DNA from: Tricharina praecox
Taxonomy: Eukaryota
Assembly: GCF_024521635.1 (NCBI RefSeq)
Contig: NW_026250407.1
Span: 1,550,001-1,614,000, forward strand
Reading direction: 5' to 3'
Length of the DNA: 64,000 nt
The notes beneath the pieces were generated by a model. The model made no database searches, was not told the DNA's origin, and worked only from the letters and a program-made list of their open reading frames with translations. The translations under genes were made by a program, and so were the position numbers. Shown here piece after piece: positions 8,136 to 12,560 of the stretch (positions within the stretch are counted from its first letter, which is position 1; every line of letters begins with the position of its first letter).

Positions 8136-9696
8136 ATGGCTCTCAACGCAGCCTCGAATCTGGCCGAGAAGGTTCTCGGCCGTGACTACTCCAACGTCGA
8201 CACCATCACCGACGTATCAAAGCCCGATGCTGCAGCCGGCACAGCAGATACGACAGAGACTATGAAGGCGCTGGCATGGTTTGGGAAGGGTGATGTGAGA
8301 GTTAGTATGTGCCTGCGACCTTCTCCCTTCTTTCTTTTCTCCCCATACTGACGAGAGAGAACCCCAGTTGAAACCCACAAGCCAAAGATTCTCGAGCCCA
8401 CCGACGTGATCGTCAAGGTGACCGGTACAACCGTGTGCGGCAGCGACATCCATCTGCTGCACAACGTGATCCTGCAGCTCAAAGCGGGCGACATCCTCGG
8501 GCACGAATTCGTAGGGCGGGTATCTGAGCTCGGCTCTGCAGTGACAGAGCTTTCTATCGGCGACCGCGTTGCCAATTCCTTTGTCGTCTCCTGTGGCGAA
8601 TGCAGATTCTGCAAGCAGAAGCTCACTACCGCCTGCGAGAAGACGAACCCGAGTAATGTGCACGGGGATCTGTACGGATCGAAGATGGGCGGGATCTTTG
8701 GATACAGCCATTTTGTGGGTGGGTATGCCGGTGGCCAGGCAGAGTATGTGCGCATTCCGTATGCGGCACAGAATTTGCTGAAGTTGCCGGACGAGGTGCC
8801 GGATGAGAAAGGTTCGCATCCCCTACATCTGTGTTTCAGTGCTCGATGCTAATTCCGTCCAGGCCTGTACCTAGCCGACATCCTGCCGACATCCTACCAC
8901 GCAGTTCAAGACACGGGCGTGTACGCCGGCGACGCCGTTGCGGTGTGGGGGCTGGGACCCATCGGCTTGCTGGTGTCGATGTTTGCCTTCAAAGCGGGCG
9001 CGTCGCGCGTGATCGGCATTGACGGAAACTTCCGCACCGAGTTTGCTTTGAAGAAGATTCCCGGGATCGAAGTGTTGGATTTCACCAAGCTCCCGCGGGG
9101 AAGGACTGTCACCGCCGAGATCCATGACCGTGTGCCGGGTGGTGTCGATGTCAGTATCGAGGCGGCCGGAGGGGAATATGCAAAGGGATGGGCACATAAA
9201 ATCGAGCTGGCGGTTGGGGCGGAGCAGGATACGAGCGAGCTGGTCAATGAGGCCATCACGTCGACGAGAAAATTCGGGCGCGTCGGGATTATTGCGGATT
9301 ATGTTGGCTGTATGTTACCGCTCTACCTTCGATGAAAGTGCTGATGCTGATCAAACAGTTACGAATCACTTCAACATCGGCTCGCTGATGGAGCGCGGGA
9401 TCAGGCTTATCGGCAACGGGCAATCTCCGGTACAGAAATGTGAGCGTCCTCATCGCCCCCACCTTTACATACCTAGCTAACAGGCCTTAGATTGGCCCGA
9501 ACTCCTGGCGATGGTAAAGAGCGGCGAGATCGATCCGACCTTCATCGTGACGCACCGGCTCAAGCTCGACGACATTGCGAAGTGCTACTACGTCCACGAG
9601 AAGAAGGAGCAAGGAATGGTTAAGGCGTACATCGAGACGCGCTTCTCGGCTCCGAGGGCCCCGGGGATTGATATGCCCGAGTTGAGTCGTTTGTAG
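8136..9696 (+). CDS. Zinc-dependent medium-chain alcohol dehydrogenase (formaldehyde dehydrogenase-like, YbdR-type); 5 exons
   Basis: CGSDIH, ILGHEFVG, structural Zn motif CGECRFC...C, GGQAEYVRIP, DILPTSY and Rossmann GLGPIG. Introns 8305-8367, 8812-8862, 9310-9358 and 9440-9490 join the exons in frame. Confidence 0.95.
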
Positions 9697-10098
9697 TCGG
9701 ATTTGAATATTATGTCCTTCAAACTTCCAAATTGAAGAATAACCTGTGACGTACGAGTGATATCCCATGGTCCCCAGCATCTGCTCTAGACCCAGCAGTC
9801 CTGGCTGTGCGACGCCACATTACCGACATATCCCAGCACCGGCCGCAAATAGAGTGTGGCTGCTGCTTCGCTGAGACACTTCATTTCCCTAGCGAATCGC
9901 ATTGTCGGTATGTAGCGTAGCACAAGAAGTCGCTAACAAATACGAGGATGTCCAAGTAGGCGAGAATGAGACAGACTGCTGTGATCTGTCCGGCTGCTCC
10001 CTATGAGACTTTGCCAGTTCCTGAAGGCTGAAGGCTGAAAGCTGAATCTGCCGTACCCAGTAGGCCCACGGCATTCGAAGTTGTGCACCAAATCAGAC

Positions 10099-11031
10099 AT
10101 GCAGTGGAAAGCAGCAGCACGAGCAGCAGCAGTAGCAGCAACGGTACTGGCGTTCGCCGGTACTTCGCCAGTCGCCGCACAGAAGGTCGCGATACAGTAT
10201 TGGTGCCGGCCCAACGAGGCGACCTGTAAAGCCCCCGGCGCAGAGGAGTTGAGTCTAAGTATCGGCTGTGAGTGCCCCCCTCCCCCCCCGTCCCTCTGCG
10301 TGTACATAGAGTACATACCGAACTCCACCCGAAGGCCGAAAGCTGAAAGCTGAAGACTGAAAGCTGATAGTGATATACCATAGGCCCAGCCCCCCACGGC
10401 GGCTGCGCATTCGCCCCCGACACCACAGAGCCAAGCGTGTGCTGCTGCGGCGCCAGCGAGATCCGGTGCTGGAAGGGTGGACAAACGTGCGATGGTCGGG
10501 CGTCACAGATGAGCGTGTGCGATTTCGGCGGGCAGAGTACCCCTTCCCTCCCCCCCCGCTTCCCCCCGCTCGTGCTGTCGCTGATGTGGTCAATGAGAAG
10601 CCTGGTGCTGCGACACTAAATGGGAGACCTGTGGAGTCAGCCCCGGACAGGAGGGTAGGTGCTACCTAAGATAGGGTAGGCCGCTGTTTTTCGGTTCCAG
10701 CCCCAAGTCTGGTTTTGAGACTAGCTCAACGTCAAAGTTTGACTTTGCTACGGTGGATGTCTTTGGGACGCATTTTAATACGGATACTGAGACTGGGGGG
10801 AGAGCGACGGCGACGGAGGCAGTGGCCACGATGAGGGGGGGACTGAGTGGGAGTAGGAGTGGGAGTGCGTCTACGGCCGCCGCGGGAACGGTAGAAACGG
10901 GGACTGCGATGGCGGGAGCGGCGACTGCGGGCGCGAGTGGAAGGTACGCGGTGGGTGGGGGGTTGCTTGTGGTTGCTCCGGTGGTGGTAATCCTGGGTTG
11001 TAGAGTGCTGAATGGACGTGTTGGCTTGTAG
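10099..11031 (+). CDS. Secreted Cys-rich protein with Ser/Thr/Gly linker and hydrophobic (GPI-signal/TM-like) C-terminus; contains an in-frame TAG at 10672-10674
   Basis: Signal peptide MQWKAAARAAAVAATVLAFAGTSPVAA. Introns 10268-10383 and 10537-10600 give a 14-Cys domain ending WCCDTKWETCGVSPGQEGRCYLR. The same frame continues past the TAG to ...AGASGRYAVGGGLLVVAPVVVILG...GL*. Confidence 0.7.
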
Positions 11032-12560
11032 GATGTGATATAAAATGGCACAATGTAGCTATGCTAGGCAATTGATGAAATGGATTTCGCGCCTGATGAC
11101 GGACTTGGTTTACCTGCACTCCGGAAATTTTGTAACCAGCCATCCCAAGTTCCCAAATTGAGCCACCTCACCTTGCCTTGAGGCCACTAATCTTATTCAT
11201 CGATCTCGAATAGGTACAGGATGGATGCAACGGTGAGTATACGGTATTAGGTAGGAGACCTAGATGTCATCACAGTAAATCACTCACCATCGAGTAATTT
11301 GCCATGAAGGAAATAATAACAAATTGCCCAATCCACCGTCCCCATAATTCGCAGCCCCAAATTGTAATCAAATTCAGTCCATTCCGCACCCTATTTAATA
11401 TCTCCCCCTAGTATCTCCCCTATTATCTCCCCCAGTATCTTCCCCAGTATCTTCCCCAGTATCTCCCCCAGTATCTCCCCTTGTCTCCCCCTTGTCTCCC
11501 CCTTGTCTCCCCCAAGTTCAAGTTCCAAGCACCTCCCCACCTCCCCCCACTCAACCCTCACACCTCAACCCCCACCCTCTCAACCAACCACCCCATCAAC
11601 ACCTGCCACGCGCGCTCCTTCAGCTCCTCCTCCGGATCGGCACCGTCCCACTCCCCTTCTCCCTCCACCTCCTCCTGGATTAATTCGAAGTCTTCATCCG
11701 GAGGGGCGGAGGCGTGGATCCATTCGTTGTCGTTGTTATTATTGTCGTTGGCGTTTTTACTGTCTGTTTTGGGAAGTGCAGGGAGAAGTGCGGAAGAACG
11801 GCGGCGGTGATGGGTATTCGGATGTAAGTTTCTAGAAGGTGTTCCGGAGCTGGCGGTGGCGGTGGTGTCGCTGGTGTTTCTGGTGGAGGCGGAGGTGGAA
11901 GAGGGGGTGGTGACATTGACCCATTCGGTGAGGTATACCCAGTCGGATGTGCGCCTTTCCCGCCTTTCCTGTTTTTCTCGCGTGTCTTGGCTGTCCTGGG
12001 TGTCCTGGGTCTTGTGTCGTTTGGCGTCTGGGAATTCTGACATTGTTGCGTCTGGGTAATCTGGCATTGTTGATTGGATGAACTTGTTGAACTTGGAGGA
12101 CTTTGTTGGACGTTGCCGTGAATGATGTAGATAAAGTTATAACTTTTTTGATGTGGTGTGTGATTTATTTGGGTAAAGTGCGCAGAAGGTGCAAGCTGAA
12201 AGGTAGGTGGAAGTAAGAGGAAGGCGGAAGCTGGGTGAAAGCTTGGTTAAGTTTTATCTTGGACGAGAGGGCGAGGGCGAGGATGAAGGAAGAACATTGA
12301 AGGACGGATTGCCGTGAAGGAATTGTATGCTGCCATGCTATCAACGATCGAATCCAGCATTCCTAAACCAAAAAAAATCTATATTCCATTCAGCGCAGAT
12401 AACCCCATATAATACAGTATTCCCACCAGTCTGCGCTTTCAGGATCCCAGCAGCGTATATATGTACATCCGCCAACACCCACCCCCACCCTCCATCTCCC
12501 ACTCTCTCCCTCTCTCCCTCTCCCTCTCCCTCTCCCACAGTCCGCACAGAAAGCAAGCAA
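11030..12560. repeat. Segmental direct duplication, copy A (partner at about 13875-15840)
   Basis: Collinear matches from tggcacaatgta(g/a)cta at the left end, through tatctccccc repeats and the ORF, to tccgcacag(a/c)aagcaag at the right end. Confidence 0.92.
11558..12067 (-). CDS. Orphan acidic, low-complexity protein, paralog A (169 aa)
   Basis: Intact ORF; conserved blocks shared with the 14508-15134 paralog: YPDATMS, TSDWVYLTEWVNVT, EWIHAS, DEDFE, EWDGADP.EELKERAWQVLMGWLVERVG. Confidence 0.7.
   Translation of the reverse strand: MPDYPDATMSEFPDAKRHKTQDTQDSQDTREKQERRERRTSDWVYLTEWVNVTTPSSTSASTRNTSDTTATASSGTPSRNLHPNTHHRRRSSALLPALPKTDSKNANDNNNNDNEWIHASAPPDEDFELIQEEVEGEGEWDGADPEEELKERAWQVLMGWLVERVGVEV

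Follow-up and report, generated by a model that had tools for sequence, protein, structure and literature searches.

A cysteine-rich gene of Tricharina praecox was found at 10099–11031 of the window, the 64,000-nucleotide stretch of contig NW_026250407.1 that was analysed here. Its spliced frame gives 131 aa with 14 Cys and then an in-frame TAG (10672–10674) in an AGA-TAG-GGT context. Past this TAG the frame has 118 open codons up to the TAG at 11029–11031, and the read-through frame is 250 aa in total. The feature is real, and its mechanism is most likely either truncation or editing. We read it as a recently truncated, formerly anchored gene, with a probability of about 0.48, and rank this reading narrowly ahead of an mRNA editing switch. 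A plain nonsense allele accounts for the data no worse than editing does. This figure and the gradings of the other explanations are our judgement, made without computation.

Gene Structure and Transcripts

Of six listed sequencing runs, the contigs of four were compared with the window over 8300–11500. None of these runs is catalogued as RNA, and X3 and X5 nonetheless contain spliced contigs. An RNA contig of X3 is spliced exactly at 10267>10384 and 10536>10601, which confirms the two canonical introns read by the initial annotation from the sequence. The 131-aa, 14-Cys product it proposed agrees with the translation, and an identical protein (P0004) stands in the public annotation of Tricharina praecox as a hypothetical protein. 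The spliced translation likewise bears out its in-frame TAG and the run of about 118 open codons behind it. At this gene, X5 supplied only an unspliced piece (10188–10372). An N-terminal signal peptide is predicted from a hydrophobic core in the hydropathy profile. The features of the gene are as follows:

10061..10063, + strand: possible 5′ UTR intron acceptor, inferred from the RNA contig start at 10064, with no joint
10099..10179, + strand: predicted signal peptide, about aa 1–27 (hydropathy judgement)
10099..10267, + strand: coding exon 1 (X3 RNA contig 18; public annotation)
10268..10383, + strand: intron 1, GT..AG, 116 nt (X3 RNA joint 10267>10384)
10384..10536, + strand: coding exon 2, Cys-rich core (X3 RNA contig; database match)
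10537..10600, + strand: intron 2, GT..AG, 64 nt (X3 RNA joint 10536>10601)
10601..10671, + strand: exon 3 to the stop, with Cys 11–14 and an unused GTAGGT donor at 10655 (translation, RNA contigs)
10662..10679, + strand: predicted small RNA hairpin with a 6-bp stem and a 6-nt loop, A10673 being the last loop base (folding)
10672..10674, + strand: in-frame TAG, codon 132, with the candidate editing base A10673 (sequence, RNA contigs)
10675..11031, + strand: 118-codon in-frame tail with a Ser/Thr/Gly/Ala-rich linker, a hydrophobic segment and 9 further residues with 2 Arg (ends at TAG 11029–11031)
10948..11001, + strand: hydrophobic segment, aa 224–241 of the read-through frame, best 15-residue Kyte-Doolittle mean 2.67 (hydropathy)
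11001..11003, + strand: out-of-frame TAG at the end of the hydrophobic segment, possibly a remnant of an ancestral stop, by weak inference (C-terminus test)

The Stop Codon in DNA and RNA

The TAG is genomic and is not private to the sequenced isolate, since it is common to the assembly, to soil DNA run X1 and to the divergent soil DNA run X2. The X1 contig (10295–11114) showed 0 differences and contained the TAG. The X2 contig (10559–10778) also contained it and had one difference, which is unlisted and so sits near the contig end, not at 10673. X2 represents a slightly divergent haplotype, with 7 substitutions and 1 deletion listed across the compared stretch. The genomic check for TAG that the initial annotation had proposed was therefore positive in both runs, and an assembly error behind the TAG is rejected.

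A second copy of the gene on contig G000:C57 was rejected both as independent support and as a repeat. Positions 1–66285 of that contig are a redundant copy of G000:C50 ~1532000–1599600, all 66 kb aligning to C50 at 99.0–99.5%, and the gene is consequently listed twice in the public annotation. The kinase matches on C13/C82 and on C17/C52 are likewise identical pairs.

Two X3 RNA contigs cover the stop. Contig 18 is spliced, continues unchanged past the 10655 donor (22 nt beyond) to 10676 and reads TAG, and contig 19 (10665–10822, 0 differences) is unspliced and reads TAG as well. These RNA contigs keep the stop, so the earlier question of whether it is spliced out is answered as far as they go. 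A>G at 10673 was seen in 0 of the 2 contigs, a count that refers to contigs only, at a depth of 4–8 and in RNA of unspecified stage; the site lies 3 and 8 nt from the contig ends, and contigs drop rare variants. The coverage of the tail by X3 contigs ends at 10822, with nothing from 10823 on, a gap that counts neither for nor against any reading. The two contigs meet around the TAG with a 12-nt overlap (10665–10676). Low depth suffices to explain this break, and a mixture of edited and unedited reads could be another cause.

The Tail Downstream of the Stop

The tail is rich in Gly, Ala, Thr and Ser (65 of 118 residues, 55%) and has an 18-residue hydrophobic segment near its end. Before this segment, the S+T fraction is 0.29 and the S+T+A+G fraction 0.65, values that qualify as the Ser/Thr-rich stalk of GPI proteins. 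Judged by this make-up, the tail is probably a real Ser/Thr/Gly linker with an anchor segment, at least as a relic.

The fungal GPI consensus of bioRxiv 10.1101/132464 consists of an omega site followed by hydrophobic, uncharged last 10 residues. The present C-terminus, with two Arg in its last 10 residues, fails this consensus; a hypothetical end at the hydrophobic segment passes it, and the out-of-frame TAG (11001–11003) stands there. That TAG could be what is left of the original stop, but the hint is weak, since the tail has 13 out-of-frame stop triplets. Of the GPI-signal or TM-like tail that the initial annotation described, the linker and the hydrophobic segment stand, and the canonical GPI signal does not. 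The read-through product would have the layout of a GPI protein but is not filed as one, because the C-terminal consensus failed. It may carry a short transmembrane anchor, or a GPI signal that has decayed.

The listed tail differences of X2 are Arg>Met at 10856 and, at 10953, the loss of 1 nt, which puts the last codons out of frame. Both are non-silent, and both rest on a depth of 2.7, at which errors are possible. A 133-codon stop-free antisense frame also lies over the tail (10662–11063, minus strand); nothing marks it as a gene.

Proposed Reading: A Truncated, Formerly Anchored Gene

We propose that this lineage-restricted gene originally encoded a protein in which a signal peptide was followed by an extracellular domain with 14 Cys, a Ser/Thr/Gly stalk and, at the end, an anchor of the GPI or membrane type. 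A single-base change would have produced the TAG three codons past the last Cys; the codons one substitution away from TAG encode W, Q, K, E, S, L or Y. What the gene makes today would be a 131-aa protein, soluble and secreted, whose Cys domain is complete, and the point mutation may have been tolerated because this domain stays intact. The tail would be kept in the mRNA as a relic under largely relaxed selection, and editing there, if any, would be incidental.

The unedited TAG in both X3 RNA contigs across 10673 (at low depth and near contig ends) is consistent with truncation. The failed GPI consensus at the present C-terminus points the same way, together with the earlier end, marked by the out-of-frame TAG, that passes it. 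So do the X2 differences: both listed in the tail are non-silent, and the two in its 1127-nt dehydrogenase contig are both intronic. The sequence motif around the stop is ordinary, there is no genome-wide TAG excess and no exonic TAG in the inspected kinases (all below), and the gene is an orphan. Against truncation, the TAG is common to the assembly, X1 and X2. All 118 codons of the tail have stayed open, but at ~0.3% divergence (our estimate) this is expected even without selection. A predicted hairpin loop holds the candidate base, the species has two Ame1 orthologues, as Pyronema does, and the genes known for premature stop codon correction (PSC) are also mostly hypothetical (43/71) and lineage-restricted (PMC10776026).

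The orphan status of the cysteine-rich gene is judged from sequence searches. Word-index protein searches at three length ranges matched only the 131-aa protein itself. Against 1.84 billion representatives, phmmer returned the protein and three other matches, which were repetitive proteins. Its protein cluster has 1 member, the ESM Atlas and Pfam gave no relative or family, and a protein and pattern search of its own genome gave no paralogue. A metagenome protein search yielded 79 stretches, none confirmed as homologues, and a degenerate Cys-pattern search of metagenomes yielded 21 loci with 0 homologues. The single-sequence AlphaFold model reached pLDDT 49 and had no PDB match. Nonsense alleles persist most easily in genes of the orphan class.

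Possible Sexual-Stage Editing

The second explanation is A-to-I editing of UAG to UGG in fruiting bodies, with a 131-aa secreted domain in vegetative cells and a 250-aa, stalked, membrane-tethered form in sexual tissue. We regard it as nearly as likely as truncation. The stronger version, in which editing would be a selected developmental switch of localisation, from secreted in mycelium to tethered in apothecia, is less likely.

Tricharina praecox is a post-fire cup fungus of the Pezizomycetes (Pyronemataceae), the family of Pyronema. In Pyronema confluens, 2772 sex-specific A-to-G sites have been reported, 149 of them stop-loss (PMC5381528), so the editing in Pyronema named by the initial annotation is documented, and its presence in the same family favours editing here. 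Pezizomycete editing arose independently, perhaps via Ame1 duplication, according to Feng et al. (PMC11087585), whose Supplementary Data 6 gives two Ame1 orthologues for T. praecox. The duplication favours editing, but its role in Pezizomycetes is only the authors' hypothesis. Our own-genome search found two close, intact Ame1-like DUF726 genes and a third, intron-containing and more distant one:

G000:C2:1047087–1048103: DUF726 gene
G000:C39:1430141–1431133: DUF726 gene
G000:C29:342519–343643: DUF726 gene

The site context was compared with the Fusarium rules (−2 Y, −1 U, +1 R, +2 G, +3 R, +4 R; PMC9600606), which come from a fungus whose editing is independent in origin. At A10673, U−1, G+1, G+2 and G+3 are preferred, and A−2 and U+4 are depleted, so that 4 of 6 positions are preferred. 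The −1 U and +1 G come automatically with any TAG. This leaves four free positions, of which two are preferred, and at least as many were preferred at 380 of 626 control TAGs. The motif fit is unremarkable. The favoured context named by the initial annotation therefore holds for U at −1 and G at +1 to +3, as an ordinary match that most controls equal or beat.

More than 62% of Fusarium editing sites lie in hairpin loops (PMC9600606), and A10673 was in a predicted hairpin loop in 7/7 folds (6 window sizes and the spliced mRNA) versus 222/626 control TAGs, with a probability of being unpaired of 0.54–0.98. As evidence for editing, the loop has a likelihood ratio of less than 2, and shuffled sequences fold just as stably (z −0.4). 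The hairpin rule, like the motif rule, derives from Fusarium. The position of the stop at the border of domain and stalk, in at least two haplotypes, also favours editing.

Editing is opposed by the lack of an edited RNA contig, by the tail end that fails the GPI consensus and by the tail frameshift that X2 may carry. A search of the freely accessible literature found no report of editing in Tricharina and no case of editing that adds a surface anchor. The editing switch put forward in the initial annotation thus keeps its anatomy, its lineage and a predicted hairpin-loop A, and lacks A>G in the RNA contigs and a GPI consensus end.

Other corrected stops were sought in the genome. In 774 kb scanned with a crude codon model, 51 candidates came up (24 TAG, 22 TGA and 5 TAA), and the two best TAG candidates were rejected by eye as intron acceptors. 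No excess of TAG before long frames was found, in a noisy comparison of 19/200 TAG with 19/206 TGA coding-like stops. Among 147 kinase matches, 30 bear a TAG; none of the 28 inspected by eye has an exonic in-frame one (low power), the TAGs being intronic or off-frame after an intron. The TAGs in the third DUF726 gene were rejected as corrected stops because they are intronic, and DNA-methylase matches were free of stops in 4/4 (low power). A kinase that we take to be DBF2-like, from its sequence, ends in TAA by three-frame translation. These samples have little power at the rate known from Fusarium, which has 71 PSC genes (PMC10776026).

Editing, if it occurs, would make this a stop-correcting site outside Pyronema, in another Pezizomycete, with an outcome of a new kind, a soluble versus an anchored surface protein, and it would bear on whether the Pyronemataceae lineage with duplicated Ame1 edits its mRNA. 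Without editing, the site would be an ordinary nonsense allele by which a surface protein lost its anchor, and the 131-aa protein of the public annotation would be correct.

Unlikely Alternatives: Splicing, Chance and Readthrough

A conditional third intron that removes the stop, most likely from the 10655 donor to CAG 10822 or GAG 10804, would give an anchored isoform of 194–200 aa. The initial annotation had found no frame-restoring acceptor for this donor up to about 10740. Beyond that point such acceptors do exist (10804 GAG, 10822 CAG, 10894 TAG and others), with a branch-like ACTGAG at ~10786–10791, and the RNA contigs use none of them. FgBUD14 offers a precedent, as it pairs PSC editing with alternative splicing of the stop-holding intron (PMC11156358). 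X3 contigs 18 and 19 are unspliced across the region, however, with no such joint listed, and all four translated candidate introns delete Cys128, the 14th, and leave 13 Cys. We consider this intron very unlikely.

It is also highly improbable that chance alone makes the tail open and anchor-like, as the ordinary G-rich 3′ UTR of a gene that always encoded a small secreted Cys-rich protein. Only 22 of 5000 dinucleotide shuffles were open for 118 codons. A linker-plus-hydrophobic-end filter, with thresholds set post hoc when the tail was already known, passed 4 of 2666 frames of 100 or more codons in 774 kb, the tail among them; one of the remaining three frames closely resembles it and forms a complete GPI-type end. 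In favour of chance, 12 of 4249 frames were anchor-like under looser thresholds, most of them probably non-coding, and 42 of 511 coding-like stops (~8%, contaminated by antisense frames and introns) precede 118 or more open codons. Trained on 114 long ORFs, the codon model gives no guidance on the tail. Its score of ~0 overall would suit a chance frame, but the proven coding part also scores low (0.044 per codon); the other frames of the tail score −2 to −47 in total.

The least probable explanation is leaky ribosomal readthrough of the UAG yielding a few percent of anchored protein, for which the in-frame, anchor-like tail would be suited and the AGA-UAG-GGUAGG context would not, being unlike the CAA-stop-CARYYA readthrough context of yeast.

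Comparison with Known Systems

Editing here would act as it does in the PSC and stop-loss genes known from Fusarium, Neurospora, Sordaria and Pyronema (PMC11156358, PMC7306014, PMC13123824). The T. praecox gene does have a genomic in-frame TAG in a transcribed, spliced mRNA. It cannot yet be counted in this class, since A>G, the defining feature, does not appear in the RNA contigs.

The Fusarium graminearum PSC pseudogenes PUK1, AMD1, FgAMA1, FgRID1 and FgBUD14 (PMC10776026, PMC11156358) similarly have a single in-frame TAG that can be restored to TGG, and a long coding-like frame follows the TAG in a gene of unassigned function with a low-complexity part. Unlike the present gene, they have demonstrated editing, perithecial expression and a conserved TAG. 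Their hosts are Sordariomycetes, and Pezizomycete editing is thought to be independent in origin. The unedited product of the Tricharina gene, in contrast to those of the PSC pseudogenes, would be a whole secreted domain that could plausibly function.

Stop-loss editing in Pyronema confluens (149 sites, PMC5381528) and in F. graminearum, where 403 genes including FgDBF2 are affected (PMC13123824), resembles the present case in a UAG within a predicted hairpin loop and an in-frame extension behind it. The characterised extensions are disordered, destabilising tails (24 aa in FgDbf2; PMC13123824), whereas the Tricharina tail would be a 118-aa stalk with an anchor.

The read-through frame orders its signal peptide, Cys-rich domain, Ser/Thr stalk and C-terminal segment as fungal GPI-anchored surface proteins do. 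It differs from them in the interrupting TAG, in the two Arg of the last 10 residues that break the consensus, and in a Cys domain that matches no Pfam family or solved fold.

Neighbourhood of the Gene

A gene at ~8200–9696 of the window is presumably a zinc-type alcohol/formaldehyde dehydrogenase, as we judge from its motifs, and its three introns are confirmed by spliced contigs of X3 and X5. Between this gene and the ATG of the cysteine-rich gene, the stretch 10020–10075 is similar to 10335–10410, where intron 1 passes into exon 2, with repeated GCTGAA units followed by TAGGCCCA. This suggests a small internal duplication upstream of the ATG. A 5′ UTR intron (donor candidate 9908) is also suggested, as the RNA contig begins just past an upstream TAG ending at 10063.

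Downstream, a diverged tandem duplication of the neighbouring minus-strand gene region occupies 11031–~12500 and 13876–~15800 of the window. Its identity is ~70% over the first 260 nt, and its left edge coincides exactly with the stop that closes the tail frame. Immediately upstream of the window, a long short-tandem-repeat array (G000:C50 ~1546800–1549600) contains a 945-codon minus-strand frame that is apparently coding.
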